DNA of 64,000 nucleotides from Flectonema sp. DT1601 (lineage: Eukaryota): contig OZ025787.1 in NCBI GenBank assembly GCA_964019425.1, forward strand, positions 1,364,001 through 1,428,000. Direction: 5' to 3'. Position numbers and translations under genes: made by a program. The notes below the pieces were generated by a model, which had not been told where the DNA came from, searched no databases, and was given only the letters and a program-made list of their open reading frames with translations. The number at the start of each line of letters is the position of its first letter. Position 1 is the first letter of the stretch. Positions 441 through 62,517 of the stretch are shown here, piece after piece.

Positions 441-3400
441 ATGAATATCAGGGTCCCCGTTGTACTTCTATCGCTCTTGTCTTCGGTGTGTGGACAGATA
501 TTGCCAGTAAGGACCATCGTTGCTATAGGGGGATTGGCCTTTAACCCCGTTGGTAATTTCGAGGAACCCTGCGATCCGCCTAATTATGTAAATGTAACCG
601 ATGAAATATGTGTAAGTGGATACCCAACAGCAGCACATTATTTTGAAGCCTTGGCCAAACCAACAGATGTCGCAGGGGTTGTTCGAGTCATGGGTACCGA
701 TGAACTCTCAAAAATAACATTATACCATCCTCGTCACTGGGAATTGAACTTAGACGTTTGGAAAAGATTAGATATTGATTTCGGGGTGCTGAGATCTCCC
801 GGAATGTTCACACAACCTGTTTACTACGATGACGCTTTGAGGTTTTTAAATAACAAACACCTACCGGTGGTGGCATCGAACATAGACTTACAACCTTATT
901 ATTATGTTTTTGATTTGGTTGATAAAATATTCATCAAAGACGTTGGAGGTACGAAATTCGGTTATATAGCAATATGGGGAGACCTGTTGTACATAAAAAC
1001 ATACACATACGACTTAGTACTACCCAGCATCGCAGAAAGACTCCGTTCACTAGGTGCGGAAGTAGTTATATTACTCTGTATCGGACAAGCAAAATATTTC
1101 ACAACCCCAACAACATTAGTGAGATTCAATATAGATGCGGTGTTATTGCCTGCTGAGTATACTGATGTTACAACACCAGTCGTATCAAATGGAACGACTT
1201 TGTTAGTTGGAACCTTAGAAAGAGGTGCTTCACATGCTTTACAATACATTGATGCAGTGAAAGCATTTGATTCCCTACTTGGTCGTATGACGTGGAGGTT
1301 TACTTCAACAAATATTAATATGGCAACACCTCTTACTCCTGCTCAGAAAGAACCATTAATTCAAAAAGGAGAATATGATTGGATTCAAACACAACGTGAT
1401 CTGTCACTCGCAAATGATCCTGTCGTTGGTCAGTGTACTCATGATCTACAAGCTGTTAACGATGAAAGTGAAGTTTATTGTCGTTACCAAGAATGTGTTG
1501 GAGGTAACATGGTTGCTGATGCTTGCGCTAGGAGACTTCCAACAGTTGATGTTTGTTTTCCAAATGCAGGAGCACTTCGTCGTGGATGGGATGCAGGCCC
1601 AGTTCACGCCTCTGATGTCACGACGTATGTACAATTTTCTTATTATATCAAACAGATTAGTTAATCATCACCATATTAAAATAAATAAAACAGATTCTTC
1701 CCATACGCAAACACACTCTGCGAACTTAACACAACTGGTGCAGGAATTTGGGAGATATTAGAAGTAGCTGTCGCAAACATTGGAACTGATGGTAATCTCA
1801 ACTCGTCAAACAGAATCTCAGGAGGCTATCTGCAAGTATCTGAAGGATTTAAATATTCTTACAATTGGAGGCTTCCAAGAGGACAACGAATCACATCCAT
1901 CAGTATAAAGGGAAAACCATTAGACCGAAGACGATATTATACCTTGGGTGCGCTTTCTTACTTGTGTTCGGGAGGTGATAGTTTTCCTACACATGTTGCA
2001 GTTCCAAGATCGATAACGTATTTCGAAACAATTAGCGCACACGCAGTCATATCTGAATATCTGAGAACAAATAATCCATACACTCCAAAATTGGAAGAAA
2101 GGATTGTTGTTAACGATTTTGGTGAACCACTTTTGTTAAAGAGACTTCTACCAACTGATTGCAACAGTTCTCAAGTTTTTGTACCGGAGTTCGGATCTTG
2201 TGATGAGTGTCCAGAGGGGTATTTTCATCCGTTGCCTGGATCGGATCCATGTATCCTTGAACCCCTACCACCATCCCCACCTTTAGATAATGCTGTTATT
2301 ATAGTTCCGGCAGTGGTGGTTCCGGTGATGCTCTTGTTAGCGATTTCATTCTGTTTCAAATTACAGAGAGATGGAGCAAAGGCAAAACGAGTTAAGCATG
2401 CTCCAAAAGGAAATGGTGAAATCGCTTTTGTTTTTACTGACATCCAAGCAAGCAGTACCCTTTGGAGTACTGAGCCTACCGCTATGAGTAAAGCATTAGA
2501 AACTCATCACAGGCTCATAAGAGAATTAATCGATCAGTTTGAAGGTTACGAAGTGAAAACAATCGGTGATGCGTTCATGGTAGCATTCTCAAATCCAATA
2601 AATGCCGTTGCGTTTTCTTGTGAAATGCAACTGGAGTTAGCGAATGCTTCATGGCCTGAGAGGATTATGGATTTAGACCCAGCCAAGACTGAACCACACT
2701 ACTCTGGTCTTAGAGTTCGAGTTGGTGTACATTGTGGTCCAGCAAAAGTCAACAGCACTCCTCAAGGTGGATTTGACTACGATGGCGGAACTGTGAACGC
2801 ATCTGCCCGAATTGGTGATTGCGGTTGTGGAGGACAAGTATTGATATCCGATACGGTTTATGATTTAATAGAACCTCATATCGATGTCTTAAATCACAAT
2901 GTCGACGTAAAGTATCTCGGTGAGTACCACCTCCGTGGTATTGCCGAACCTATGGGAATTCTTCAAATAATGCCCGAACCGTTGAACCTCAGAGCATTTG
3001 GTAACTTACGCGGGGTCACACCCATTTCGGAAGAAGAAGCAGTAGAAACACCAGCAGACGTATGTGTTGTACCACCTGATACTGGAACAGTACTTTCTGA
3101 AAAGTCAGAAGCATTAGGTTATACTAAACGAGATAGAATTGTTGCTCTTCAAACAATTAGAAAATATGCTCTCTCATTTGGACCGAGAGGAATGCCGTTT
3201 CCGACTGCGACATCGTTGCTGTGCCACTGCTTAGAAACGAGATCTCTTAAGGATTCTAAGTTGATTTCAATTTTACTTCTTCACGCCCAAGACGGTGCAC
3301 GACCACCGCCATTATCAAATGTACCTGGAAGAGGTAATGAATACGTTGTACATATTGCTAGTCCTTCACCACCGGGAGGACAAAAGCGACCTCAATTATC

Positions 3401-3773
3401 AAAAGGGATATCAAACAATAGAATGAGTACTAGTTTTAGAAGCCCTAAAGGTTTAGTTGATTCAGGACTTGACTTTGCTTCTCCTGAAACTCATCAGACA
3501 GATTCACCAACTGACCTTACCTTGTATTTGAGATGGGCAGTCTTTGTTGAAGTTTTACATCAGCTTCCAACTGCTTGCATATGTCAGTTGGCTAATAAAA
3601 TAAGAGAAGAGAATGGAAATATCTCTCCTGGCGTTTCAATGGATCACGATCCGTCACCCATTTCTCCGACCTCTGGGATAGTCGCACTGCTACCTTCACA
3701 TGAATTAACAAGTGGAGGGTTTGCTGTACCTCCACATCCACCACCAAATCCTCCAAAAAAATTATCTGCTTAA
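441..3773 (+). CDS. Receptor-type adenylate cyclase with a 5'-nucleotidase-like ectodomain; join(441..1624,1694..3773), ~1087 aa
   Basis: Signal peptide. Metallophosphoesterase-like segments LPVVASNID, KDVGGTKFGYIAI, LRSLGAEVVILL. 5'-nucleotidase C-domain motifs CRYQECVGGNMVADA, NAGALR, FFPYANTL (restored by removing GTATGT..AAACAG intron 1625-1693), GGYLQVSEG, GGDSF. Cys-rich CDECPEGYF, one TM helix, and class III cyclase motifs FTDIQASSTLW, YEVKTIGDAFM, DYDGGTVNASAR. Confidence 0.88.
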
Positions 3774-10708: not shown

Positions 10709-10983
10709 CTGTTTGTATTCTCAGACAACGTGGTCGTGCTTGTTTCTTCAAGTTACGCGCCCTCCAGGCAGTCAATTGTCTCAAAACTATCCCACAGGAC
10801 TGCTGCCGTTCTTAACCTGTTACGTCCTTTTACTATTTATTATAATTTTTGTAGCAGGAGAGTACCTTCAGAAATGAGTTGACATTGTAGCTCCCTATAA
10901 AGATACGATTAGACAAGATGAACTCTATCAGGGACAATAGTTATTTAGTTACTCTTTACTTTACTTCAGAAAACAAATACAAA

Positions 10984-12522
10984 ATGAAATCCATCCTCGC
11001 CCTCTTAATGGTGGGGCTCGTAGCTGCTGCTGGCGAGCCATTATTCCTCTCTGACATGATTAAAGGAGGTCGTATTGAGGAAGCGCAGAATGCTTCCCGT
11101 GTGTACCTTCCAGGTCTCCCTACCACACTAATCAGCTACTCAGGTTACGTTACTGTGAACGCGAGTTCTAACGGTCACACATTCTTTTGGTACTTTCCTC
11201 CTCTGAATGGAAACTTGTCAGCTCCAACTATGATGTGGCTTCAGGGAGGACCAGGAGGTAGTTCATTGTTTGGATTATTCAGTGAGATGGGACCTATCAT
11301 GGTAAACGATGCTGGAACTCAAGCAGTACCAAATGAACTGTTATCATGGACTAGAGAATACGGAATGGTATTCGTTGATAACCCAGTTGGTGTTGGATTC
11401 TCTTTGTCTGACCCTGAGGGATTAGCTCAGACTAAAGAACAATACATGACTACTTTATATTCTTTTATTAGTCAGTTTCATCAGTTGTTCCCAAACCTTT
11501 TAAAGAACGACTTCTACATCTCTGGAGAGTCATATGCTGGAAAGTACGTTCCTGCTGCTGCCTACAAAGTTCACCAAGAGAACGCAAAAGGAACACTTCC
11601 ACTCATTCCGTTGAAGGGAATCTTAATTGGAGATGGTCTGTGTGATCCAGCTACTATGATTCCTCAATACCCATACCTCACTGAGGCATTCTCTCTTGTA
11701 AACTGGAATCAGGTTAAGGTGATGCAAAACTACTCTGATGCTGCTAGTCAGTACATGGCAGCAGGACAGTGGGAGCAGGCCTTTCATCAGTTTGATTTAA
11801 TGATTAACGGTGATTTGACTGGTGTAACTCCATACTTGGCTAATGCGACTGGATTCGGTGATTACTTCAACGCATTGTCACCAGAGTACTCTCAGCCATT
11901 TGGAAAGGACTCACCTTTCCAACAGTACCTTAACCGTCCTGAGATCCAGAAAGCTCTTCACGTTAACAAGACTTACCTCAGTTACACAAAGGCTGTTGAG
12001 GTTGCGATTGTTAATGACGTTGCTCAGTCTGTAAAACAATTCTTCCCAACACTTCTTGCTAGCTACAAAGTGTTATTGTACTCTGGTCAGTTTGATGTTA
12101 TCGTTGGAGCTCCACTCACCATCGCATTCATTAGAAGTATTCAATGGCCAGGACAGGCTGCATTTGATGCTGCCCCAAGAACTATCTGGCACTCACGCTC
12201 TCCAGTTCTCGGTGTTATGGGTAAGCTTCTTGGATCAAATGACGTTGCTGGATACCACACTCAGGAAGGTAACTTGAACTACGTTATTGTTCGTAACGCT
12301 GGTCACATGGTGCCAACTGATCAACCGCTGTGGGCTTTGGACATGGTCACTCGTTTTATTAAAAACATCTCTTTTGCTGGTCCAGTCCCAAGCAACATCC
12401 CTGACCCAAAGCCACCAACTACAATTGCTTCAGAGCTTCACAAACTTGCAGACCTTCACCGCAATGGCGATCTCACAGATGTGGAGTACGCTGCGGCAAA
12501 GTCTCAATTACTTAACCTCTAA
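10984..12522 (+). CDS. Serine carboxypeptidase S10 (CPVL-like), secreted/lysosomal, with a C-terminal SHOCT-like tail
   Basis: Signal peptide MKSILALLMVG; WLQGGPGGSS, VDNPVGVGFS, catalytic GESYAG, GQFDVIV and AGHMVP. Start taken at the AAAATG at 10984. Confidence 0.95.
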   Translation: MKSILALLMVGLVAAAGEPLFLSDMIKGGRIEEAQNASRVYLPGLPTTLISYSGYVTVNASSNGHTFFWYFPPLNGNLSAPTMMWLQGGPGGSSLFGLFSEMGPIMVNDAGTQAVPNELLSWTREYGMVFVDNPVGVGFSLSDPEGLAQTKEQYMTTLYSFISQFHQLFPNLLKNDFYISGESYAGKYVPAAAYKVHQENAKGTLPLIPLKGILIGDGLCDPATMIPQYPYLTEAFSLVNWNQVKVMQNYSDAASQYMAAGQWEQAFHQFDLMINGDLTGVTPYLANATGFGDYFNALSPEYSQPFGKDSPFQQYLNRPEIQKALHVNKTYLSYTKAVEVAIVNDVAQSVKQFFPTLLASYKVLLYSGQFDVIVGAPLTIAFIRSIQWPGQAAFDAAPRTIWHSRSPVLGVMGKLLGSNDVAGYHTQEGNLNYVIVRNAGHMVPTDQPLWALDMVTRFIKNISFAGPVPSNIPDPKPPTTIASELHKLADLHRNGDLTDVEYAAAKSQLLNL

Positions 12523-14438: not shown

Positions 14439-16118
14439 ATGAAGTCACAACGCAGAGTGATGGTAGCCTTAATTCTCTGTGTGGGTGTGGTAGCGTTGCT
14501 GCAGATGGGATTTTTGGTTGAACCAGTAGAGGGTGATACTACGTTGCCTGCTGTTAGAATAGAGAGAAGTGAAAAACCTGAATCGGTCGATGTCAAATCT
14601 GAACCTACAAAAACTGTTGAGCAACCGAGACATCAAAATAAACCAAATCAACAATCAGAAATTAAACTTCCATATACGTACCCTGTTCACCTGAAACTAA
14701 TTTCTAAAGATAAATTGAAATTAGGTATCGAACAGCAAGTTCAAAGCCAAGTTCGAACCTGTGCTATTCATTCAACTGAACCTCTACAGCCAACCCCTTC
14801 TGAGTATGAGAGGGAAACACCTTCGAGCGTATCGCACACAAAGTTGCTGAATGATTTTTATATCGGAGATGACAACAATCGAGTTCACAGTGCTAAGGGT
14901 TTATTCCTAAGAAAAACAAATAAAAAAGCCGACATCAACAACGTTGATGACATTTATTGGATTCCTGAGGATTCTGATTCGAGTGGAATTAACCTTCCGT
15001 GTACCCGAGAAGCTCAATTGGGTTTATTTAAAAAACAAAATCCAAACAACTGTGAAAAGACAACTTTCTTATCAACGCGTCTAAAGGCTGATGCTCATGG
15101 TCTTGGTAGTGCATTATCACTGATAGTTCATGATTTAATATCAAGCATTAAACTAGACAGGGTTCTGGTCGTTAGATCATCAAAATGGTTCTTTGCTCCA
15201 ACCGAATGCGGTTCTAACGGTTGGACTTGTTACTTTAAAACACCTTCATACTGCCCTGAACCATCAGAGAAGGGTGATGTATATTCTGGAAAAACTCGAA
15301 ATTCACGTGTAGTCCGAAAGAAAGACACCGATCAAAAGGGACTATCAAGAAGCGATTTACCAAATCTATCAACAATTCTTGATGATAAGTGTGTTGATTT
15401 GGTTACAGAATGGTCAAAACAGCCTGAGAACACCTACTTAATGGGAACGTTTGAAAAGGGAAGTAGTCCTCTTCTGACATGGTGGATGGCTCAGTCAATT
15501 AGATATTTAGTAAGAGCTCCACAACCATGGTTTAGTGATATTATAAAAAGTAATCTCGCATCGCAAGGGTTCCCTTGGAATGACGGATTGGTGTTTCAAC
15601 AGCTTCGTGGTGAAGTTGCGAAGTTTCGCGAGTACTTCAACACGTTCGGATGTCATGATGTTCATATGGAGGCATACAAAAAGTGGACTAATAAAATTTA
15701 TAAAAATCAACGTGACGGAAATGGACGACCGACAAGCATCTACATCAGCGGTAACACTCCACACGATAGTTTTATGTCATTAGTTTCAATGCAACGTGAT
15801 GACCACAAAATATACAGTACTTGGAATCACAGTGCAGCAGCTGTCTCAGTTGAGTCAAAGCGTTGGGGTGCTAACACATTAGTTGTAAGCTGGGTTGACT
15901 TCTGGGCAGGTGTTGCTTCTTCTGGTTGGGTTTGCATCATCCAGTCAAACTGGTGTCGGATGATAAACTTTTTACGACTTACAGCAGGTCGTGCAAACTG
16001 TCCGTTCATCGATCTCGGAGTAACAATGTTATCTGATACTGAAGAACGAGACAAGTACTGCATCGTAAAAGATGAATGGCCAAAGAAGGCCTTCAGCAGC
16101 GTAATACGTAAGAATTAG
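14439..16118 (+). CDS. Type II membrane glycosyltransferase, GT23/alpha-1,6-fucosyltransferase (FUT8)-like
   Basis: N-terminal TM anchor and stem. QNPNNCEKTTFL, HGLGSAL...LDRVLVV, GWTCYFKTPSYC and SNWCRMINFLR parallel FUT8-family motifs. The HVRRTDK motif is divergent (QLRGEVAK). Confidence 0.7.
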   Translation: MKSQRRVMVALILCVGVVALLQMGFLVEPVEGDTTLPAVRIERSEKPESVDVKSEPTKTVEQPRHQNKPNQQSEIKLPYTYPVHLKLISKDKLKLGIEQQVQSQVRTCAIHSTEPLQPTPSEYERETPSSVSHTKLLNDFYIGDDNNRVHSAKGLFLRKTNKKADINNVDDIYWIPEDSDSSGINLPCTREAQLGLFKKQNPNNCEKTTFLSTRLKADAHGLGSALSLIVHDLISSIKLDRVLVVRSSKWFFAPTECGSNGWTCYFKTPSYCPEPSEKGDVYSGKTRNSRVVRKKDTDQKGLSRSDLPNLSTILDDKCVDLVTEWSKQPENTYLMGTFEKGSSPLLTWWMAQSIRYLVRAPQPWFSDIIKSNLASQGFPWNDGLVFQQLRGEVAKFREYFNTFGCHDVHMEAYKKWTNKIYKNQRDGNGRPTSIYISGNTPHDSFMSLVSMQRDDHKIYSTWNHSAAAVSVESKRWGANTLVVSWVDFWAGVASSGWVCIIQSNWCRMINFLRLTAGRANCPFIDLGVTMLSDTEERDKYCIVKDEWPKKAFSSVIRKN

Positions 16119-18696: not shown

Positions 18697-20210
18697 ATGA
18701 GTTACCTCTCATGGTCAACATTCTTTATTCTAATAGGAAGTGTTGCGTGTGTTGATCCACTATTTGTCGGATGTTTTGGCGATACTAGCGCAGCGCCAGA
18801 CATGCCGACTGACACGAAACTGATGTCCAGAGAAATGACTATCGAACTCTGTGTGGGTCATTGCAAAGGAAAGATGTTTCGTTATGTTGCTTTACAAGAA
18901 GGAACGACTTGTTTCTGTGGTAACAGTTACGGATCTCACGGAGAAAGTAAGGGAGGATGCGTAAAAGAGTGCACTGGAGGTTCAACTCCCTTTGGAAGAT
19001 GCGGAGGAGACTTTGCCAACTCCGTATATGACACAACAAAAGTACAAGAAGAAGCAAACAGTTCTAATTATGAACTCACTTATGTTGGATGCTTCAAAGA
19101 CAAGTCTCCGGGACGTCAATTCCCAACAGAGTTCCAATTCGACGATGATTTAATGACCGTTCAGATGTGTGTTCAGCACTGTACTAAACAACAACATATA
19201 TTTAACTATGTTGCCTTACAAGATGGTAATCAATGCTTTTGTGGCAATGAACCTGGAGACAAACTTGGCAGGGCAGACGGTAGCTGCACGAAGAACTGTG
19301 CTGGCACACAAGTAGAAAAGGTTTCTGGACCAGCAGGAAAGTGTGGAGGTGGATTTGCTAATCAAGTTTACGGATTGAGATTGTTAGTACCATCAACAGA
19401 AGCTCCTAAAGGAACGATAGTTGTCGCACCGATTAAGATAATACCAAATTGTGGAATTCCAATGTCTGTTCTCATATCATCATTCGCAATATTAGTTACC
19501 TCGTTGGGGAGTATGGGATTCTTCTGTGTCACTGTCTTGTCTGCTACATATCCTTATGCTGTTACTTCTATCTTTATTGGTTCCTTGACGGCAGAGATAT
19601 TTCTGGTTGTGATTAGTTGTCTTGTTGGTCATATCCTTCCAGATTCTTCTTTCTTATCGATTCGTAATAATAAAATATTGAATGCGATTGTGTTGGTTGC
19701 ATACGGCTTTTTACAGGTCCACAAGTCATTCTGTGTAGCCGCGAAAGATCAAGATGATCGTAGGGAAGACTTCCGCTTTGCAATAGCTGAAGTAGGAAGA
19801 CCGACTCAGAAAGATGATGGAAGCGGGATATTATCAGAGCAAGTTCAAGACTCTCCCTCGTCAATTTTTATGGCGTTCAAGGCTATCCTACTAACAGAAT
19901 GGGGATCGATAAACCAACTTGCTATAATTATTCTTTCGATTGTTATTGACATACGATCTGTTGTTTATGCTGGGTTACTTTCTCAAGTATGTTGATTACT
20001 TATATATTCCCTGCTCTACTTCTCTAACTAACATACTAAATAATAAACCAAAAATAGTTTTATATGGTGTCCTTGGCGGTAGTCATTCCACCCCAATCGA
20101 TGATCGGAAAAAACAGCTTTGCGTTGAAGACTTATTTTGCAGGAGGTGTGTTTTCGTTCTCTTTTTTCTTCTTCCAGTTGTTCAACAATTATTGTTGTTG
20201 GTATCATTAA
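18697..20210 (+). CDS. WSC-WSC domains fused to a GDT1/TMEM165 (UPF0016)-like membrane domain; join(18697..19986,20058..20210), ~480 aa
   Basis: Signal peptide; two WSC repeats (F/YVGCF.D...MT...C..HC....YVALQ.G..CFCGN...CGG.FAN.VY). Two UPF0016-like halves (TSLGSMGFF; AFKAILLTEWGSINQLAII). Intron 19987-20057 (GTATGT..AAATAG) restores the final helices SLAVVI...FAGGVFSFSFFFF. Confidence 0.8.
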
Positions 20211-20689
20211 ACAAAAACAGGTTTGGTGTTCTTTTTCTTAGCAATTAACCAGATGTTTGAATCAAATGACGACTTGTTGTGAGTGTTGTCGAACTCCTTC
20301 ACCGCATTTACATATTTTTTCGATGTCACCGTATAGCTACTACCATAGTGAATGTGACTAGCACAACTCACTAAAAGGATACTAACTACACAAAACCAGT
20401 AGTGTTGAGCTGGGAGAGCGTCAGTATATTTAAACTGACGCGATACTCTTCTTGTTTGCAATGCTACTTCTGTTGATCAGACTTGCTGATGTGGGAGAGC
20501 ACTAATTGAGTTGCGACAATCTTCAGATCTAAAAAGTAAGGAGCAGAAATAAAAACAAACCTGAGCTTTAGCCCTTTCTTAAGCAGTTCGGGTTTTTACT
20601 CAAAATAACCGCTTTTGCGATTTTTTTTTTTAAAAATAAAAAGAAAACTTATTTTTTCCTCCAGGTTACAAAAAAAAAAAAAAAAAGAA

Positions 20690-23530
20690 ATGGGAGACAG
20701 GGCAGAACTAGAACCAGGATGCAAAGTATTTAGTGAGTTTCGAAAAACTGAAGATTGCCATATCTTCGAGGTAAGTAATCGGAATGAACGGAGAAAATGT
20801 GAAATTGAAATTGATCTGTCGGGAAGTGAAAACGTCATGATCCCCAAGCATAAATCTCTTCAATACACACTCAAGGTTCCAGCAGGTGAAAGCCGAAGTG
20901 TAGAAGTCGCAATGATCGATAAAGATGCTGTTTACAAAATTGAGCACACAATCAAATTTAAATTTTATTGTGAAGTAAAGGCTACGTCGAACACTGAAGT
21001 ATTACTGTACAGCAACTTAAACACTGAGGAAAGGCTTCAAAAAGGGATAAAATATTGTGATTTAAATTATAAGGCAAACGACAGCAATAACCCTGCGGGT
21101 GTTCTTTGGGTGAGAACAACCAGTCTGGAGCCCAGAACTAAATCGACGACGCAGCCTTTAATGTGTCCTGAGTTAGAAAGTATATTTAGCTATCTGACTG
21201 CATGTGAATATCCTTTAGAGAACTTAGTCACGTCTACGTCAGAAGACTATGCTGGAGGAAAAGCATCCGTCAGCTTAAACATAAAAGGTTGGTGGACGAC
21301 CCTAACAGTAGATAACTACGTGATAGCCGATCAGCAGTATGGTGAATCACTTTTTTGCACTGGTTCTGATCCAGATTCGTTTTGGAAAATTTCAATGATT
21401 GAAAAAGCTCTTAGAAAACAGCAGTACATATCCAACGACAATTCTCAATTCAACAAGTCTGCTGTTCTATCAGCTCTCACTGGTGCTGCTACTGAAGCAA
21501 TCGCAATAAATAAAAATGATAATATGTTTATAAAGAAGTTGATTCATTGGTTACGTCACTCTGATAAAAAAGGACATCCAACACCACTCGTGTTAGTCAC
21601 TTGTTATGATTCTGAGGAATCGACAGACGAGATGATCGCGAGGAATATTTCATCATCGGGTTCGCTTCCGAGGTTATTAACAATTTCATCTGGGAGTGAG
21701 TCTGATGAGGAGTTTAAAATTGATGATTTCGTAATAACAGCTGAGCAACAACGTGAATCAAAAGACATAATCACAATATCAGCTAAAGACTTACTAGCCT
21801 TTGGTAAGGAATTATCATACTGTGCAATACCTGAAGGAAGTGAAACAGATACGAGGATTCACACTAGTATTGGTGAGAATGTTTATTCTGTTGGATTAGG
21901 TCTCAGGATCTGGATTTCAACATCGAGTTCGAGTCCATTAGAAATAGGAGTCTCCAACAATGATGAGCATTCAAAAGGTAGCTGTGTGTTGTTCGCAAGT
22001 TTTCCTGAGAATTTATCCGTTAAAAATGATAATTTTGATTCATCAAATTCAACGTCATTCGTGTGCTCAACTGATACTACCAGTTCGATATCTTGTTTGG
22101 TGACGGGGTCATCTTCGAGTCCAATTATACTAGTGCCTTATCCTCCTTTTAAAAATAAGGTACTCGATATCTGTATAAGTGTTACCACTACTGCCGTGTT
22201 GTCAAAAATTGAGCCATTCACAATCGAACAACCGCATATAAAAACAGCTTTACGACTTGCTTCTGTGTCATCTCCGGTTTGCACACATCAGCTTACTGAA
22301 GGGTTGGTAGTTCACAATTGGAAGTGTGGAGACTTATTGTTATTAGGATATCAAAACAGGGGATCTGAAGGATACACCGTAACCACAGAAGTAGCAGGCA
22401 ATACCTACAAAGGTGATGGTGATTCTGATCAGTCAGTTGTAGAGTCTTTTGTATCACCTAATTCATGTGGACTGTTAGCACATCTTTGGAGATGTGAACC
22501 CAAAGCTGAAGAACAAGATTCTTTTCAATTAGCTGAAGTAGATCCAGAGATTAGTCACTCGTATATTAAAATGGGAAGTGTTGCTTCTGCGAAGATTGAA
22601 AATACTAATGAAAATGACAACTTAGAAACTCTCTCTTATAATGTTCCACAGAACTATGAATATCAACATAATCGAACCTTAGAAAGATATGGAACAGGGA
22701 CTCCTGAGAATGCGTCCAGCAACTGTGAAATTGGAATCAGAGACGATATTAGCAGAGATGCTAAAGAACAAACAGAGTTAACAAGTGATACAACTGTCAC
22801 GGCTAAAGTCTTACTGCAGTTGGAGTCTGATGCTGCTGCAATGAGAAATCAACCAGCTCCACAACCTGTTTTGCTTAATAATATCAAAAAACCTGGTTCT
22901 GTATCAAATACACCACTCGATTCTGAGCCAATTCCTCAACGTCTGGGGGCTGTGTCTGCTCCACCTGGTAGTACTTTTACTGATACGTCAACTGTAAGAG
23001 GGACTGCTGCATCGCGACGAGCTGTTTTTGTTCGTCTTGCACAGACACCAGTCCCTCGAAGTACTGCAAGTTATCAACTGACTCCTTTGAGAAAGAATAA
23101 ACGTCTCACGACTATACAACAACATCAAAGTGTTGAACGAATGTTTAAAGAAAGCGTTCAAAAACGAGAAGAGGAACTGGAAAAGTTAGAACGTCGAATC
23201 TACGGAGATCCAGGAACTCGTCATATCCTAAGACAAGAAGACATGTCATTATTTGTTGATAAAATGTACACTCAAGCAAGGCTAGTCCAGTCTGATAAAC
23301 GTCGTCACCTTGAAGAGATGTACCTGACGGCTTTGATACCAAAGAAATCCATTCCAAAAGAGAGACAAGCAATTATGGTAAAGAAACTATACAATACTGT
23401 TGAGCAGGATAGGAATCTTTCACAAGAATTAGATAAAAAACACAACCCACAAAGAGAGCGAGTCACTCGCACCAATGCTTGCTGGACAGCAACAATAGCA
23501 AGGCTAAATCAACCGATTAGACAGCTGTGA
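20690..23530 (+). CDS. Calpain-like protein, probably non-proteolytic, euglenozoan type
   Basis: SLNIKGWWTTLTVDNYV, FWKISMIEKALRK and LSALTG match calpain CysPc segments. No QG.LGDCW catalytic motif is visible. C-terminal helical repeats (SVERMF.., FVDKMY.., MVKKLY..). ATG 20690 follows a pyrimidine tract and AG at 20664. Confidence 0.7.
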   Translation: MGDRAELEPGCKVFSEFRKTEDCHIFEVSNRNERRKCEIEIDLSGSENVMIPKHKSLQYTLKVPAGESRSVEVAMIDKDAVYKIEHTIKFKFYCEVKATSNTEVLLYSNLNTEERLQKGIKYCDLNYKANDSNNPAGVLWVRTTSLEPRTKSTTQPLMCPELESIFSYLTACEYPLENLVTSTSEDYAGGKASVSLNIKGWWTTLTVDNYVIADQQYGESLFCTGSDPDSFWKISMIEKALRKQQYISNDNSQFNKSAVLSALTGAATEAIAINKNDNMFIKKLIHWLRHSDKKGHPTPLVLVTCYDSEESTDEMIARNISSSGSLPRLLTISSGSESDEEFKIDDFVITAEQQRESKDIITISAKDLLAFGKELSYCAIPEGSETDTRIHTSIGENVYSVGLGLRIWISTSSSSPLEIGVSNNDEHSKGSCVLFASFPENLSVKNDNFDSSNSTSFVCSTDTTSSISCLVTGSSSSPIILVPYPPFKNKVLDICISVTTTAVLSKIEPFTIEQPHIKTALRLASVSSPVCTHQLTEGLVVHNWKCGDLLLLGYQNRGSEGYTVTTEVAGNTYKGDGDSDQSVVESFVSPNSCGLLAHLWRCEPKAEEQDSFQLAEVDPEISHSYIKMGSVASAKIENTNENDNLETLSYNVPQNYEYQHNRTLERYGTGTPENASSNCEIGIRDDISRDAKEQTELTSDTTVTAKVLLQLESDAAAMRNQPAPQPVLLNNIKKPGSVSNTPLDSEPIPQRLGAVSAPPGSTFTDTSTVRGTAASRRAVFVRLAQTPVPRSTASYQLTPLRKNKRLTTIQQHQSVERMFKESVQKREEELEKLERRIYGDPGTRHILRQEDMSLFVDKMYTQARLVQSDKRRHLEEMYLTALIPKKSIPKERQAIMVKKLYNTVEQDRNLSQELDKKHNPQRERVTRTNACWTATIARLNQPIRQL

Positions 23531-39147: not shown

Positions 39148-40882
39148 ATGAGGGAACACGTATCTCCAAGATACGCTATTGGGAGGAGGTCATGGAAGTC
39201 AATAATGCTTGCCTTTGTAGCTGGAATGCTCGCGACTACATTGGTAAGTCAAGCTCGTTTATGGGACTGGGATGGAATGAATTTGAATAAAGAAATAAAA
39301 TCACCAGTTCAAAGCGAAGCGGTCAACATGATAGCCGACAATATAATGACAACAAAGCAGGCTTTTGATATAAAAAGATTCTTACAAAGACTAAAGTTAT
39401 CTGGACACTACAGCAGCTTACTAATAAGACGAGGTTATGACATGGATTCTTTAGCTAAAGCTACAATAAATGACCCAGAGCCTGGGATTAAAGCAGCACA
39501 CTGGAAGACTATCATATCTGAGGCTCGCATCGCAGCTGATAAGATTATTCAAAGTACAAACAATGATATTAATCATGTCGTGTCAACAGTTGTTAAGCAA
39601 GATGACGAATCAATATTCAAACTACTACTTGAGGGCAGTGATGAAGACGAACAACAAGAACAGCAACAACAACAGTCTCAACAAAAAAATCAACCGCAAG
39701 TGATAGCTGCGACTAATTCTACAAAAGATATTTCCTTGTCAACGCCACTACCAACTGCTATCCCTAATCCCCCAGACAAAACCCCTGCTATCTGTATTAC
39801 CATACCTCTTAGTGAGAATATACGAGTTGAGTATTTGAAATGGAAAGAAGTAACTCGATTATCTGTAAATGGAACAATTAATTTTAAAAATAAAGTTCCA
39901 ATCTGTAAAGGAATTCGTGAGACTGTTACAGACAAAGCATTCAACAGTGAGTTCATGTCCGAGCATCGGACAGCACCGGCGAGAGCGATGTCAGGATTGC
40001 GTGGATTTAATAAGCAGCGTTTGTCTGTTAATCAGATTGAGGATCTGAGATCAAGTGGTGTCATTGAACAACTCTATTTTGATCATGATTTAAAAATAGC
40101 ATATTGCGCAGTTCCAAAGGCTGGGTGTACTGAAGTCAAAGCTTGGATGCTAAACAACGCTGGACTTTACAAAAGATCAAGAACCCCTCACAACAGAACT
40201 TTATACACTGGAGAGAGAATTCAAAACGGACAAGTAATGAGCAACGAGCGACTGCAACAAATTTTCAGTGACGGTGAGTATTTCAAGGTATGACTTCTTT
40301 TTGGTCATCTACGTTGCTTCTTGTCTATAAATATTAAAATCTAACATAACAAAACAGTTCACACTAGTAAGAAATCCATTCACAAAGGTACTTGCTACCT
40401 ACTTGGAAAGATTTAACGAATGTGAAAAGCAAATTCGAAGAACGAAAGGAGAATGTGACATGTGGAAGAGAGCTTTATTAGAATTGAAACGAGGAGAAAA
40501 CATGAATGGGATAACTCTACCAAACGATACGATTTCATTTACTGATTATCTTAAAGTAATGAAAGATCATCCTCACGCTGATGTTAACTTCAGGAACACT
40601 CATTGGGTTAATAATGTTGACATATGCGCTTTAAAAGATCTCACATATGATTTCTTAGGAAGACTCGAAGACAAGAATGATATCAAACTAATCTACGACC
40701 TCCTTGGCAGTAAAATGATGGATACACTTCGACATTCTGAAGGTACGAGTAAGAAGCTTAAGAAATATTATACGAAAGAGTCAAAAGATTTGGTCAGTCA
40801 AATATATCAAGATACCGACTATGAAGTCTTGGGCTATTCGGGTGATAATGTCGTTCCTGATTTCTCGAATCCAGCTGCTTGA
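39148..40882 (+). CDS. Type II membrane sulfotransferase (Sulfotransfer_2 / CHST-like) with a SAM-like domain in the stem; join(39148..40287,40358..40882), ~554 aa
   Basis: TM anchor; 5'-PSB motif YCAVPKAGCT; spliced YFK|FTLVRNPFTKVLATY (3'-PB); YDFLGRLE; DYEVLGY. Intron 40288-40357 is GTATGA..AAACAG. Confidence 0.88.
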
Positions 40883-41317
40883 TGAGAAGAAAAAAAAAAA
40901 AACATGGAAGTCTATTCGTTTTTTTGTTTTTTTTTTAAATTATTGTAATAGGCTCTGTTGCTCTGATAGTTGCAATCTATTCGTGGGGGGAGAAGGGCAA
41001 TCCATTTTTTTATATTAAAAAAAAAAAAATAATAATAATAATAATAAGTGATGTATTACACCATCAAGATACCTAATATTCCTGATACTATGTCACTCCC
41101 CCGCCTGTTGCTGTTGTTGGCTGCTTCATTCGATAATTGAATTAAACAAGTCAACAGTCTAACTACAGCCATAAAACCGGGTGTAAGATTTGCTCTGATT
41201 CGTAGCCTTCATCTCTTTAGCGGAGATAGGACAATCCATTTTTGTAAGGTACGATTATTTTTAAATCTATAACTGTTGATAATATTTTACACACTTTTCT
41301 TTTAACAGAAGTAGGGA

Positions 41318-42559
41318 ATGCCGGAGGTTGGTGGCAGTCCGAAGAAGGAGGGAGGTGTTGTTAAAAAAAAGGAAAAGCGTCGCCTGTATTGTTGTTTTAT
41401 AACATGTTCTCTATTAGTTGTTGCGGTGATGATGATGAAAGGAGATCAATCTGTAGCTGGAAAAAGACAATCTCGAGAGGCTACTGAAGAAGCAGAAGGT
41501 TTACGAGTTCAGGACATCCTCGAACTGGAACTCTCTCTAATCTCAGAAGACCCTCCACAACTTGAATCAGAGCCTCTGATATGTTCATCATTGAGATCTA
41601 CAGAAGCAATAAAATCATTCTATTCAAAACATTGGAATAAATCATCATCGTCATACCCAGTACCAAAGCGATGCACTGGAAGTAATAATAACTATTTACC
41701 AATCAGAGAAAGACATATAAAAAAAAACGCTCAGTCACCTCTACTTAGAAGCACAACACTAAGAGCATCTGCTGACAAACCCTACTTAAAAATATCAGAA
41801 GATGAAGCAATTCAGTTGATAGACAAACTTCGATCAACTGGAGTTATAGATCAGCTATATTTCGATCACACAGCAAAGATAATGTACTGCGCTGTTCCAA
41901 AGGCAGGTTGTACTGGTATTAAAGCATGGATGCTAAGTGCTGCAAGTCTATATAAAGGTGGTACTGTTCACAATAGGCAGCTTTACAAGGGACCCAGGAT
42001 ACAACATTCTCAGTTTATGTCTAACAATCAATTTATAAAAATTTTAACTGAGGGTGAATATTTTAAATTCACTGTTGTGAGGAATCCTTTCACCAGGGTT
42101 TTCGCAAGTTATTTAGAAAGGTTTGCAAATTGTTCAAAAAAAAGAGCATTTAATGAATGTGATATGTGGAGGAGGAGACTTACTGGTGGTCGTTGTAAGA
42201 TCTCAGACAACTCATCCTACGTCGACATGTTAAAGGTGTTGAAAGATTGTCCTTTTCGGAGTGTTGATTTCGCGAATGCTCATTGGATCCCATCGGTGTC
42301 AACATGTTCACTAACTGATCTTCCGTTTGATTTGATAAGTCGATTAGAAAGTAGTTCTGATATGGAGTTAATTAATGATATTACTGGGTTTAAAAAACTT
42401 AGGTCAACATCAGTTGCAAAAGGTCATTCAACGCGTTCACAGTCGAAACTTCAGAATCACTACGACAGTGAAGCGATTAATTTATTAAAAACATTGTACA
42501 ACGATGATATTGAACTGCTTGGATATAAACCCCCTCCTGGAATTAAAAAAGAAAAGTAA
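41318..42559 (+). CDS. Type II membrane sulfotransferase (Sulfotransfer_2), tandem paralog
   Basis: YCAVPKAGCT, YFKFTVVRNPFTRVFASYLERF and DDIELLGY; clear block similarity to the upstream paralog. Confidence 0.9.
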   Translation: MPEVGGSPKKEGGVVKKKEKRRLYCCFITCSLLVVAVMMMKGDQSVAGKRQSREATEEAEGLRVQDILELELSLISEDPPQLESEPLICSSLRSTEAIKSFYSKHWNKSSSSYPVPKRCTGSNNNYLPIRERHIKKNAQSPLLRSTTLRASADKPYLKISEDEAIQLIDKLRSTGVIDQLYFDHTAKIMYCAVPKAGCTGIKAWMLSAASLYKGGTVHNRQLYKGPRIQHSQFMSNNQFIKILTEGEYFKFTVVRNPFTRVFASYLERFANCSKKRAFNECDMWRRRLTGGRCKISDNSSYVDMLKVLKDCPFRSVDFANAHWIPSVSTCSLTDLPFDLISRLESSSDMELINDITGFKKLRSTSVAKGHSTRSQSKLQNHYDSEAINLLKTLYNDDIELLGYKPPPGIKKEK

Positions 42560-46278: not shown

Positions 46279-47823
46279 ATGAAAGTATCACAAGTGTTGA
46301 TTATATGCTCGTTGTTATTTGTTTGTGAAGGTAATGAATTTTGTTGTCAAGGACAGCATGTGAAACCTGGTATTCTAAAGGCAACACGCGAGCCATGGTG
46401 GAAATATCACGGAACTGAAGCAAGGTGTGGTGATAAAACACAACCATGTGATGTTAACGTTTGTAACGAATGTTGGAGTGGATTGGTACCTGACTTACAT
46501 CGAACTTTATCAGAACAGACGGGATACTCATACGAACTTGTTGGGGCACCACCTGGAACTACCACAGAACAGTTACTTAACTTATTAAGAGATGGAACTA
46601 TTACTATGTTACCTCATGAGTTAGGGTTGTCATCATTCTCTTCTGATATGCAGGACAATTTTAGTTTTACGCAACCGTTTGTAACTTACACGTACTCAGC
46701 TCTTGTAAAAAGTGAAAGAACTACTGCAGACATGTGGTCTTTGTTTAAACCATTTACTCTAGGACTGTGGTTAATAATCTTAGGTGTTGTTGGCTTGTTC
46801 TCTCTGACTTTCTGGGGACTTGAAGGAAACACAAACACTCCTGTGGGTGGTGCTGCTAGAGGTGTTGAATTCGTGTTCGCTTCACTACTCGGTGGGATGG
46901 AATACGACGGTGTCAGAAGGGATGGTCGTCTTGGAAGGTTTCTCAGAATAGGATTATTGTTTTTTGTATTAATCATCACTGCTACATACACTGCAAACCT
47001 TGCCTCTATATTAACAACTAAGAATTTAATATTACACGGACCTAGAAATATGGAACAGCTAAAAACTGCAACTGTCTGTAATTTTGACAACCCTCTCGTA
47101 AGAACTGACATCCAAACACACACAGAATACGTTATGACACCAGATGGAAATTCACGTCAATGGGAAGCTACAGAACTAGGTCGAAGAGACTGCATTAACA
47201 AGCTCCTTGACGGAACAGTTGGTGCTGTAATTGCCAATGTCTTGGAGTTAAAACAAATGCAAAAAGACTTTGGTGTCTGTGACCAAGTAAAGCATATTCC
47301 TTTAATTGCTTTCAATCCCCGATATGTTACTTTTATGACTACTAAAAATAACTCAGCCTTCGCTCAGAATTTGACGGAAACGATTGTTAAACTTCAGACA
47401 AACAAACTTTTAATGAATATGATGAATGAGAATTACGAAAGCGCCTGTACTACAGAACCAGCTAAGAAAAACTACCAGTTGGATATAGAAAATCTGGGTG
47501 GTTTGTTCTGTATTACAGGAGCGTGGGTAGTCATCACGATACTTTGCAAGCTAGCTACTGTTGCTGGAATAGGAAGGGGAATCATTCCAGATGCGAATAA
47601 TAACATACATGAAAATCAAACAGATGAGATTATGCAAAAACTAAATTCAATTCTTGAGGAAGTATCTTCGTCTCACAGAGCGAGACCACTTCTCAATGAG
47701 GCGGAATCTTACAGCAGCTCTGCTAGTCAAAAACCGTTCTTTGAGTCTACGACGAGTTATTATGTGGCCCCTCTTAGTAGAGTACCGTCTAGAAAGGTAC
47801 ATCCCGGCACAGTTCAGGCATAG
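46279..47823 (+). CDS. Ionotropic glutamate receptor-like ligand-gated channel lacking the amino-terminal domain
   Basis: Signal peptide; S1 ending FSFTQPF; pre-M1 MWSLFKPFTLGLW; re-entrant loop; M3 gate ATYTANLASILT; S2; M4 LDIENLGGLF. Confidence 0.88.
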   Translation: MKVSQVLIICSLLFVCEGNEFCCQGQHVKPGILKATREPWWKYHGTEARCGDKTQPCDVNVCNECWSGLVPDLHRTLSEQTGYSYELVGAPPGTTTEQLLNLLRDGTITMLPHELGLSSFSSDMQDNFSFTQPFVTYTYSALVKSERTTADMWSLFKPFTLGLWLIILGVVGLFSLTFWGLEGNTNTPVGGAARGVEFVFASLLGGMEYDGVRRDGRLGRFLRIGLLFFVLIITATYTANLASILTTKNLILHGPRNMEQLKTATVCNFDNPLVRTDIQTHTEYVMTPDGNSRQWEATELGRRDCINKLLDGTVGAVIANVLELKQMQKDFGVCDQVKHIPLIAFNPRYVTFMTTKNNSAFAQNLTETIVKLQTNKLLMNMMNENYESACTTEPAKKNYQLDIENLGGLFCITGAWVVITILCKLATVAGIGRGIIPDANNNIHENQTDEIMQKLNSILEEVSSSHRARPLLNEAESYSSSASQKPFFESTTSYYVAPLSRVPSRKVHPGTVQA

Positions 47824-59408: not shown

Positions 59409-61577
59409 ATGAGATCCCTTCCTTGGGTGCTGCTTGCAGCGACCCTCTGCAGTGCTGACAACACGATTTGCCCGAACTGGGAAACAGACCCTGCCAGTTG
59501 CCTTAAGAAGTACAACGTAGTTTGGAATGACCTGCTTCCTGAACCTAGGGATACTTTCATAAATACAATGCCATTGGGTAATGGAAGACTAACAGCGAAT
59601 GTGTACTCTAATGGAGAAGACTCTGTTAGTTTATTATTTGCAGCAAGTGATGCATGGAATGAAGGATCTGATTTGATAAAAGTTGGGACTGTTACCGTTC
59701 AGTTCGAACCACAACCACCAAAGGGTCACTTCAAGCAGTACATTGACTTAGCCACGGCAACTGTGTTCGTGGAGATGGGAGACTTGCAAGTGTCGATGTA
59801 CATTGATGCGAACAGTAACACTACTGTTGTGGATTACAACAACACGAAGTACACTGCCAAGGCAACTGCCTCGTTGGCTCGTCCTCAAGCTCAGTCTGTC
59901 CAGGGTCAGTTTGAGTGTCAGGCATACAACATCAGTGCTGACGGTAGTGCTGAAAATGGAGCAGCTTTCTACCATCGGAATCAGGGATTCCCTGAACAAG
60001 ATTACTTCAAGAACATGGTCGAAGAACAAAACCTCGGCCCCAAAGCCTACGCATCGATGCCTAACTTGTTAGTAAACAGAACTACTGGTGGGTACATTAC
60101 TACTTCTGGTTCAATGACTCTCATTACGATATTAACAAAACAAACTAACACTGTAGAGGATTGGGTCTCTGCTGTCAAAGCTGAAGTCGTCACTCCGAAT
60201 CAAGAAGGTCACGTGAAGTGGTGGAATTCGTTTTGGCAGCGTTCGTACATTGAGGTTTCTGACTTTAACGTAACATCGAAGTACGTATTGCAGAGATTCC
60301 TGCAAGCATGCCAGGCCAGGTCTCCATTTCCTATGAAATTTAATGGAATGTTGTTCACGGCGACACGTGATTTGGACAAGCGCAATTGGGGTGGTCGCAA
60401 CTGGTGGCAGAACCTCCGTCTTCCGTACTACAACATGTTGTCAACTGGTGACACTGACATGTTGTTCACTCTGTTGGATAGTTTTCATAAAACACTTCCT
60501 CTTGCTAAGGCAAGAACTGAACATTATTTCAACATCACTGGTGCGTACTGGCCGGAATACACTGATGCTCTATTTGGTACTACACACGCTCAGTCATACG
60601 GGTGTGGACGTGCTGGAAAGACTGACCCACCCTACTGGTACAACTCTGATCGTTGGAACCACTACAACGTTCAGGGAAGTTTGGATCTTTCCTTATTTGC
60701 GATTGATTACCTCACTCACACTGGTAAGTCTGGAGAGTACATGGACATCGTTGTTAATGTCTTGGAGTTCTTCGCTCAGTGGAGACCTGCTAGAGATGCT
60801 CAGGGTAAGATGATACTCTTCCCGACCCAATCATGTGAAACTTGGCAATGTCCTGGATATCCTCCAAACCCAGACAATTGTCCAACTAATGACATGCCTA
60901 CAATAGCTGGACTCTACTCTGTTGTGAACAATGTCTTGCTTACTTCATTCGGAACCCCACAGCAGAGGGCTTCTTGGAAGCAATTGTTGGATATTATCCC
61001 TCCACTTCCAGTAAACAGCACGAACTTGTTGCCATGTGAGAAGTGTCCTCATAGAACCAGCAATGTAGAGAACACTGAATTGTATGCTGTTCATCCTTAC
61101 AGATTGTTTACAGCAGGAAGGATGAAGCCGAGTGAGATGACGTTGGCATTCAACGCGATGGACGATCGCAGATTCCGTTCTGATGTTGGATGGAACCAAA
61201 ATGCCATGGACGCCGCACTCTTAGGACGTGCTAAGGATGCTCAGTCGATGGTAGTCGCACGTGCGAGTTACGGTCCAGGTCCTGGTTATCGCTTTCCGGG
61301 TTTCATGCAGAAGTTTCAGGACTACTCTCCTAGTTTAGATCATTTATCTGTTCACAACAATGCTGTGGTGTACATGTTATTACAACAAGATGATTCAATT
61401 ACACACAATGTAACTATTCTTCCTGCATGGCCATGTGACTGGGATGTAACTTTTAAACTCCACGCACCTCTACAGACGATAATCACTGGATCTGTGACTA
61501 ATGGAAAGGTTCAATACAAAGTTTCTCCTGACTCTAGGGCTCCATTTGTACACGCTGCTCCTTGTCAGCAGAAGTAA
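59409..61577 (+). CDS. Secreted glycoside hydrolase-like protein (GH95-like / DUF5703, alpha/alpha barrel), copy 1
   Basis: Signal peptide; TMPLGNG, H.KWWNSFWQRSYI, KFNGMLF, WGG.NWWQNLRLPY, SNVENTELYAVHPYR, GWNQ and MLLQ...ILPAWPCDWDV.FKLHAP resemble bacterial GH95/DUF5703 proteins. Confidence 0.8.
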   Translation: MRSLPWVLLAATLCSADNTICPNWETDPASCLKKYNVVWNDLLPEPRDTFINTMPLGNGRLTANVYSNGEDSVSLLFAASDAWNEGSDLIKVGTVTVQFEPQPPKGHFKQYIDLATATVFVEMGDLQVSMYIDANSNTTVVDYNNTKYTAKATASLARPQAQSVQGQFECQAYNISADGSAENGAAFYHRNQGFPEQDYFKNMVEEQNLGPKAYASMPNLLVNRTTGGYITTSGSMTLITILTKQTNTVEDWVSAVKAEVVTPNQEGHVKWWNSFWQRSYIEVSDFNVTSKYVLQRFLQACQARSPFPMKFNGMLFTATRDLDKRNWGGRNWWQNLRLPYYNMLSTGDTDMLFTLLDSFHKTLPLAKARTEHYFNITGAYWPEYTDALFGTTHAQSYGCGRAGKTDPPYWYNSDRWNHYNVQGSLDLSLFAIDYLTHTGKSGEYMDIVVNVLEFFAQWRPARDAQGKMILFPTQSCETWQCPGYPPNPDNCPTNDMPTIAGLYSVVNNVLLTSFGTPQQRASWKQLLDIIPPLPVNSTNLLPCEKCPHRTSNVENTELYAVHPYRLFTAGRMKPSEMTLAFNAMDDRRFRSDVGWNQNAMDAALLGRAKDAQSMVVARASYGPGPGYRFPGFMQKFQDYSPSLDHLSVHNNAVVYMLLQQDDSITHNVTILPAWPCDWDVTFKLHAPLQTIITGSVTNGKVQYKVSPDSRAPFVHAAPCQQK

Positions 61578-62517
61578 GGTAAAGTTGGTATCAGTGAGCA
61601 CTCAGCTGGGAAATCTCTAATTTGATTTGAATTTGAGGACAAGATAAGAAAAACATAATATTATTGTAAACTTTTGTTTCATTCCTTCAAAACAATGGAT
61701 CTGTAGGTATTAAAGGGAGAAAAAAATTACTTTTATACTTACATTTTAAACTCACTCGCTCACATCAGTCCAATATTTGACTTTTTTTATTTTTTTTTTT
61801 TCGGGTAAGATTTTGGGGGAGGCGCCTATAAAAGTATTCTCCGCAAGACTTTAAGAAAGAGCCAGTGATGTATCAGAAAGTTGATGTATTTACAAAAGAC
61901 CTCTTTCTCTTCATTATGAGTATAAAATATAATTTTGCTCTTTTCTTTTAAAGTGATTTTGTGAGCAACTTGTTTTATTTTTTGGTGTTGTTTCCCCTGA
62001 GCAAGACATGACGAATTATGGGAGATTTTCATGAGACAAAAAAGTAATCGTAGCTTTTGATTCTTGGATGACCCTGTGTTTCACTCCCCCATCGCAAGTC
62101 GTATTCCCAACTTCAAACGTTTTTTTTTCAATTGTGTTTAATTTCTTTTTTTTTAACTCTTTTCGTCTTACGCAAGATGAGAAAACAATTTTCCGAGAGC
62201 TTTGATTCTCCAAGAGGTCAACTCTATTTTCTTATTATACGTTTTGTGGTTTAATTAATAATAGCGTACCTCTCACTGAGGTGGTGCTGTTTCCAACTGT
62301 CGTGATAGTGGATGAGTTTCTTCTACTAATTTTGTTCGTGTAGAAGTACTCAATAATACGTCACATTGCTTACTATGAATAATATTTATATAATGTTCGT
62401 CATCATTCATATCTTTCATTCATTTTATCAGAAGGAAATGACCGATGGCTTCACTAAACTGTTTGACAAGTATTCAGTAGTACACTACCACTTTAATCAT
62501 AGTCACACGACCATAAC

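Follow-up and report, generated by a model that had tools for sequence, protein, structure and literature searches.

The WSC-GDT1 gene and its surroundings

The 64 kb stretch of Flectonema sp. DT1601 DNA analyzed here (the window) is eukaryotic and intron-poor. At 18697–20282 (+) it contains a WSC-GDT1 gene of three exons and 479 codons, modeled after alignment to the Flectonema neradi protein P0005. The open reading frame opens at the ATG at 18697 and extends to a GT donor at 19987. Exon 1 (18697–19986, +; codons 1–430), defined by this frame and its translation, is 81% identical to the Flectonema orthologue. Intron 1 (19987–20057, +; GT–AG, 71 nt, phase 0) is followed by exon 2 (20058–20145, +), in which 22 of 31 residues are identical to Flectonema, and by intron 2 (20146–20220, +; GT–AG, 75 nt, phase 1). 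Exon 3 (20221–20282, +) supplies the end of helix 6 and the stop codon and matches the C-terminus of P0005, with 20 of the final 21 residues identical. A preliminary description made from the DNA alone had proposed the 19986/20058 junction, which is backed by the spliced F. neradi orthologue, and had ended the gene at 20210; the real end is 20282, intron 2 having been read through and exon 3 missed. As a whole, its observation of the sequence was confirmed. In Diplonema ambulator, isoforms P0009 and P0030 part at the intron 1 codon, and in Flectonema P0004 and P0005 do so at the intron 2 codon, a pattern that fits retained introns at conserved positions.

Searching 1.84 billion representatives with the membrane part of the protein gave 23 matches, namely six proteins of the WSC group (the window's own included), 16 canonical GDT1 proteins and one other, the 2848-residue repeat protein P0013, which was dropped as unrelated. 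The WSC group as studied here has seven members: the window protein, its orthologues in F. neradi, D. ambulator, D. papillatum (KAJ9453147.1, annotated as a "putative membrane protein") and Artemidia motanka, and two ENA proteins that end before the second GDT1 motif. The WSC plus GDT1 architecture is present in all seven. A metagenome scan with WSC patterns alone returned five loci matching WSC, none of which matched the membrane part.

Several other genes of the window were noted. Two genes upstream of WSC-GDT1, 14439–16118 (+) encodes a type II membrane protein that matches alpha-1,6-fucosyltransferase (FUT8_N_cat, E 3e-8) and whose vicinity to WSC-GDT1 is probably incidental. The next gene downstream (20690–23530, +) encodes a 946-residue calpain-like protein with a partial Peptidase_C2 match (25.1 bits, profile positions 65–183 of 297), which may be non-catalytic. 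The serine carboxypeptidase S10 at 10918–12522 (+) ends in a tail unusual for S10, with a SHOCT-like match of 23.2 bits, below the cut-off of 27. At 441–3773 (+), a 5'-nucleotidase-like ectodomain frame precedes an adenylate/guanylate cyclase frame, and the two likely form one spliced receptor cyclase. A signal-peptide protein at 46279–47823 (+) matches the ligand-gated ion channel family (PF00060, E 3e-12), a glutamate-receptor-like channel in a diplonemid. Two adjoining sulfotransferase-like genes occupy 39148–42559 (+); the second matches Sulfotransfer_2, and the first frame stops inside the shared region, probably at an intron. Finally, a DUF5703 protein (59409–61577, +) has an apparent near-identical tandem copy at ~62500–64000 (+), as judged from near-identical shadow frames at 60343 and 63452.

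A WSC ectodomain with a spare cysteine

The protein begins with a predicted signal peptide (~residues 1–19; 18697–18753, +), indicated by a hydropathy peak at residues 6–29 and by hydrophobic N-termini in the orthologues. Behind it lie two complete WSC repeats, as had been described: the distal domain 1 (18754–19038, +) and the membrane-proximal domain 2 (19069–19380, +). Pfam PF01822 matched in two stretches (E 6.1e-29), and each domain of the window protein has the eight cysteines expected of a WSC domain. In the P0005 model, domain 1 superposed on the WSC domains of Kremen1 (Z 13.4, rmsd 2.4, 93 residues aligned) and yeast Wsc1 (Z 12.1, rmsd 3.5, 96 aligned), consistent with a WSC fold; this comparison concerns domain 1 of the model alone.

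The two domains are unequally conserved. Domain 2 is the most conserved part of the protein, with no variation among six orthologues at 34 of its 105 positions, which include invariant DKSPGR and QD.NQCFCG stretches. Domain 1 has 12 of 94 positions invariant, contains six cysteines in D. ambulator and is absent from the D. papillatum model, which has one WSC domain. An additional cysteine, Cys252 (19450–19452, +), stands just before helix 1 in all seven sequences and is predicted to be luminal and unpaired. Owing to this residue, the ectodomain cysteine count is odd throughout (17, 17, 15, 9, 17, 17 and 17), which suggests an intermolecular disulfide through Cys252.

The statement that WSC domains bind carbohydrates, also part of the preliminary description, was too broad. 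It holds for SiWsc3, a Serendipita lectin with three WSC domains that binds beta-1,3-glucan; in the portion of the same source that was covered, direct glycan binding was not shown for yeast Wsc1, the Kremen1 WSC domain binds protein, and single WSC domains present no obvious glycan pocket (PMC9024836).

The membrane part is a divergent GDT1 domain

Pfam PF01169 (GDT1) matched the membrane part in two stretches at 28.6 bits when this part was searched alone, above the cut-off of 27, and scored 24.8 bits, below the cut-off, on the whole of exon 1. HHalign of the seven WSC-group sequences against 46 canonical GDT1 proteins gave a probability of 99.5% (E 1.1e-22, 226 columns). Identity between the WSC group and canonical proteins is 20–25%. 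The two UPF0016-like halves reported earlier are thereby upheld, and a lack of UPF0016 homology by profile, which had been named as a ground for abandoning the reading, was not observed. In an Atlas search, the membrane part fell to GDT1 clusters at 0.88–0.90; the same search with the D. papillatum protein gave no usable match, and NCBIfam matched none of five proteins.

Hydropathy and the AlphaFold model of the Flectonema orthologue agree on two repeats of three helices each, with a charged loop in the center. The model of P0005 (mean pLDDT 81) has six helices, with helices 1 and 4 predicted to be broken at the two motifs; it is not independent evidence of the fold, because 109 of the 116 rows in its alignment were canonical GDT1. 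A run with a three-sequence alignment was discarded (pLDDT 42). Sequence comparison matched no solved structure of GDT1, so fold searches had no power for the membrane part, for which matches had Z below 9 or a Foldseek E greater than 0.09.

Given the signal peptide, the WSC domains would be luminal or extracellular. The central loop (19720–19860, +), whose first helix carries conserved arginines, would by homology face the cytosol. The central loop of yeast Gdt1p does so (PMC4067407), and human TMEM165 has a signal peptide and a luminal N-terminus. The loop is acidic, as had been noted, but less so than usual: the net charge of its first helix is −1 to −4 in all seven WSC-group proteins, versus a median of −7 in 135 canonical ones. 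A two-residue clade-specific insertion, within a P-D-S stretch (19639–19647, +) of the loop that joins helices 2 and 3 and is predicted to be luminal, is invariant in all seven and a gap in 99–100% of canonical proteins.

Both ion-site motifs are broken and released from constraint

The E-x-G-D-[KR]-[ST] signature of the family appears as SLGSMG in repeat 1 (S269–G274; 19501–19518, +) and as EWGSIN in repeat 2 (E401–N406; 19897–19914, +). The register, taken from alignment to 135 canonical proteins, is anchored by the kept residues G271 and F275 in the first motif and W402, G403 and Q407 in the second, which bears out the earlier report that both motifs are degenerate and three of four acids lost. 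The canonical set comprises 16 proteins from the membrane-part search and 119 from the best 120 of 3412 matches, and leans toward kinetoplastids. Two canonical-type proteins, P0021 and P0028, read ELGDET at motif 1, a natural variant with Glu replacing Lys.

No member of the WSC group retains an intact signature, whether at motif 1 (0/7) or at motif 2 (0/5, the sequences that cover it). Motif 1 reads SLGSMG, SLGSTG, LIGSHG, SLGGHS, AVGDHS, GMGNYA and SYGSRA, and motif 2 reads EWGSIN, EWGTLN, QWGGLF, EWGSQS and EWGGAA. All four acids are kept in 134 of the 135 canonical proteins, the remaining one being gapped; in the WSC group the motif-1 Glu is kept in 0/7, the motif-1 Asp in 1/7, the motif-2 Glu in 4/5 and the motif-2 Asp in 0/5, and in D. 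ambulator all four are gone. Mutants of motif residues disable yeast Gdt1p, human TMEM165 and Vibrio MneA (PMC7380456), and the two aspartates have been proposed as the main Mn2+ ligands (PMC10319644).

Comparison at matched divergence points to a loss of constraint. None of the eight polar motif sites is invariant in either of two WSC quartets, versus six to eight in all 500 canonical quartets, which overlap in sequences (127 distinct). The quartets were matched at ~40% identity, with 45 and 47 invariant sites overall in the WSC quartets and a mean of 43 in the canonical ones. Likewise, site rates at motif positions and at other helix sites were 0.08 versus 0.58 in 30 canonical proteins and 1.19 versus 0.95 in the WSC group, where the difference was not significant (p 0.09). 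Canonical residues were kept in the WSC group at 5 of 21 polar and 18 of 42 non-polar positions, again not a significant difference (Fisher p 0.17). These two results indicate that the whole domain has drifted, and they count against a simple reading of the motif loss. T304, T397, T410 and H430, polar in canonical proteins and at least 96% conserved there, are also lost, and helix threonines of canonical GDT1 have become hydrophobic residues. Conversely, position 300 in helix 2 (Glu300; 19594–19596, +) is Leu in 131 of 135 canonical proteins and polar or charged in all seven WSC-group proteins (E, E, D, E, R, Q and Q). In each of the five full-length orthologues, one or more of positions 272, 300 and 401 is acidic, the positions differing between species.

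In the membrane part, open frames persist among orthologues at 37–48% identity, so neutral decay in relatives, another ground on which the reading was to have been dropped, was not found. As judged from these alignments, the paralogue's ion site is released from constraint, neither retuned nor decaying.

Of 44 sites invariant in the five full-length orthologues, 17 are common to most canonical proteins, mostly Gly, Pro or hydrophobic, and 19 are clade-specific, among them C252, D316, S317, Q340, S344, R356, R360, N449, N469 and F472. By family topology, the clade-specific sites would fall on both membrane faces: C252, D316–S317, S421, N469 and F472 on the luminal side, and Q340–V341, S344, A348, R356, R360 and N449 on the cytosolic side. 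An ER-retrieval or dileucine signal at the C-terminal end was considered and rejected, since the last residues differ among orthologues.

Origin, and an intact canonical GDT1 in D. papillatum

In the tree, the WSC group is a single clade with 100/100 support, and the stem leading to it is very long. The clade's placement among euglenozoan GDT1 proteins has 60/96 support, and a sister position to diplonemid-type canonical GDT1 was not rejected (AU p 0.47); these results are compatible with an origin by duplication of a euglenozoan GDT1. As D. ambulator and D. papillatum belong to the Diplonemidae and A. motanka to the Hemistasiidae, the WSC-GDT1 fusion likely predates the split of these families.

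D. papillatum also has an intact canonical GDT1 (P0117, DIPPA_22853), which answers, for this species, the proposal to look for one beside WSC-GDT1. Subcellular proteomics classed it as ER/Golgi (PMC12697944, supplement Table D). The WSC-GDT1 orthologue was not found in the covered portions of the supplements of PMC12697944, PMC10161547 and PMC13615690. P0127 and P0130 form a second branch of intact GDT1 with a longer N-terminus. This branch groups with the canonical D. papillatum protein, so there may have been more than one duplication of the diplonemid-type GDT1.

Proposed role and alternatives

Based on these data, the explanation we favor, with somewhat better than even confidence, is that WSC-GDT1 is a diplonemid paralogue of the Ca2+/Mn2+-H+ antiporter GDT1 whose ion-binding site has been lost; instead of transporting, it would serve its WSC domain as an anchor in the membrane or as a receptor. 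The pseudo-transporter reading of the preliminary description is thus retained: the homology holds, the orthologues are intact and D. papillatum has a canonical GDT1 as well. Its interpretation overall is sustained only in part, since its suggestion of altered ion selectivity and its general claim on WSC and carbohydrates fared less well. In the proposed mechanism, the conserved membrane-proximal WSC2 would bind a ligand in the lumen or at the surface, most probably beta-1,3-glucan, from prey (laminarin) or from the cell's own store (paramylon), or else a glycoprotein. The six-helix bundle, itself inert, would anchor the WSC domain in a membrane of the secretory or endocytic system or of the cell surface, and the loop helix with its conserved arginines might dock a cytosolic partner for sorting or signaling. 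The spare Cys252 could tie two copies, or one copy and a partner, together and thereby raise avidity. The ligand of WSC2 is perhaps beta-1,3-glucan; we favor it because a three-WSC lectin binds this polymer and because it is both food and store for D. papillatum, which digests laminarin and stores paramylon (PMC10161547). The missing pocket of single WSC domains, the protein ligand of Kremen1 and the lone WSC domain of the D. papillatum model speak against this part of the mechanism.

The main rival, which we consider possible but unlikely, is a leak channel for cations or protons, uncoupled and of low selectivity, that the WSC ligand might gate. The retained helix breaks of the model, at helices 1 and 4, together with the at least one core acid in each full-length protein, speak against our favored receptor or anchor, as they could leave a residual pathway. 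Moreover, the TMEM165 E108G variant in liposomes is faster, uncoupled and pH-insensitive and passes Na+ (bioRxiv 10.64898/2026.09.16.752219), so the loss of an acid need not abolish flux. The kept motif glycines, W402 and Q407 would also suit a leak, as would the polar residue gained at position 300, which by our mapping, counted from the YNRL loop, would lie one turn from TMEM165 M140, a residue that faces the cage (PMC10319644). Yet position 300 is not fixed (E, D, Q or R), the remaining acids shift position between species and the helix threonines became hydrophobic; in Artemidia, Arg300 adjoins the kept Asp and may by analogy resemble M140R, which abolishes TMEM165 function (PMC10319644). 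We judge improbable a coupled transporter whose specificity has shifted to a different ion or to a neutral solute, as in other branches of the LysE superfamily. The LysE fold does carry many substrates (PMC10319644), His occurs at 273 in three of seven proteins and Gln407 in all five, but a site for a new ion or substrate should be conserved, and the motifs are broken differently among orthologues with no conserved replacement motif and none of the eight polar motif sites invariant, which also weakens the altered selectivity proposed earlier.

We regard with comparable doubt, though as slightly less improbable, a regulatory or chaperone subunit that couples the activity of canonical Golgi GDT1, or of another ion pump, to luminal glycosylation. 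A canonical partner resides in the ER/Golgi of D. papillatum (PMC12697944), and slower evolution marks helix 6 and the end of helix 3, among other regions. Against this, TMEM165 dimerization is neither shown nor convincingly predicted in the covered part of PMC10319644, the D. papillatum canonical GDT1 has no cysteine ahead of helix 1 that could pair with Cys252, and no co-localization data were found; the "regulatory subunit" of the preliminary description gained nothing positive in its favor. A decaying pseudogene, or a gene-model artefact fusing two genes, is very improbable. The sub-threshold Pfam score of whole exon 1 would agree with it, but the WSC and GDT1 parts share one exon, the complete fusion recurs in four named species, three of them represented by proteins from transcriptomes and the fourth by an NCBI model, and, as noted above, the orthologous frames stay open.

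Relation to known proteins

WSC-GDT1 shares with the GDT1/UPF0016/CaCA2 antiporters (PF01169; Gdt1p, TMEM165, T. cruzi TcGDT1 and DIPPA_22853) the two three-helix repeats, the charged central loop, the motif glycines, the W-G and Gln of motif 2 and, as predicted, the signal peptide and the luminal N-terminus. It differs in that the signature defining those proteins is absent from both repeats and unconstrained, that a folded WSC ectodomain replaces their variable N-terminal extension and that its loop helix is less acidic. As it fails the family-defining motif, it should be kept out of the GDT1 antiporter class, its homology to GDT1 notwithstanding. With Wsc1, Kremen1 and SiWsc3 it has in common the eight-cysteine WSC fold in a membrane-tethered ectodomain, and the tandem copies recall SiWsc3. 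Wsc1 has a Ser/Thr-rich stalk and one helix (PMC9024836), and WSC-GDT1 has neither; unlike Wsc1-type proteins, it has a linker of ~25 residues from WSC2 to a six-helix transporter fold, and an extra cysteine.

In transporter-derived sensors such as yeast Snf3/Rgt2 and Ssy1, the transporter fold is kept beside working paralogues while transport is lost, and the old substrate is sensed through the old site. WSC-GDT1 resembles them in a fold kept beside a working paralogue and, to judge from its sequence, in the loss of transport. It differs in that its old site is unconstrained, a separate ectodomain would do the binding and there is no long cytosolic tail.

The GDT1 family is described as one of transporters, with a single copy in most non-plant eukaryotes (PMC7380456, PMC4067407). 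The covered parts of the literature on its diversity report variable N-termini and no WSC fusion or motif-less member (PMC4067407, PMC8236900, PMC10148156, PMC7993795), and among the matches listed in our literature searches none joined WSC with GDT1, papillatum with GDT1 or, in the present sense, diplonemid with WSC. Thus, as far as the literature searched extends, the receptor or anchor role in which WSC-GDT1 likely works is new for the family. A bolder version, in which a glucan-binding WSC domain and a disarmed Ca/Mn antiporter make up the first receptor built from GDT1, with the old alternating-access bundle passing a glycan signal to the cytosol or opening a ligand-gated leak, is speculative and would surprise us if true.

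A single motif, near-invariant from bacteria to humans, defines the GDT1 family, and a lineage-wide, motif-less paralogue with an ectodomain would mean that the fold has a second use. It would also offer a natural test of what the bundle does once the acidic cage is gone, a question relevant to TMEM165 variants in disease. Diplonemids are abundant marine single-celled predators. WSC-GDT1 is a candidate glycan receptor in very abundant marine algal grazers, among which the model species is genetically tractable.
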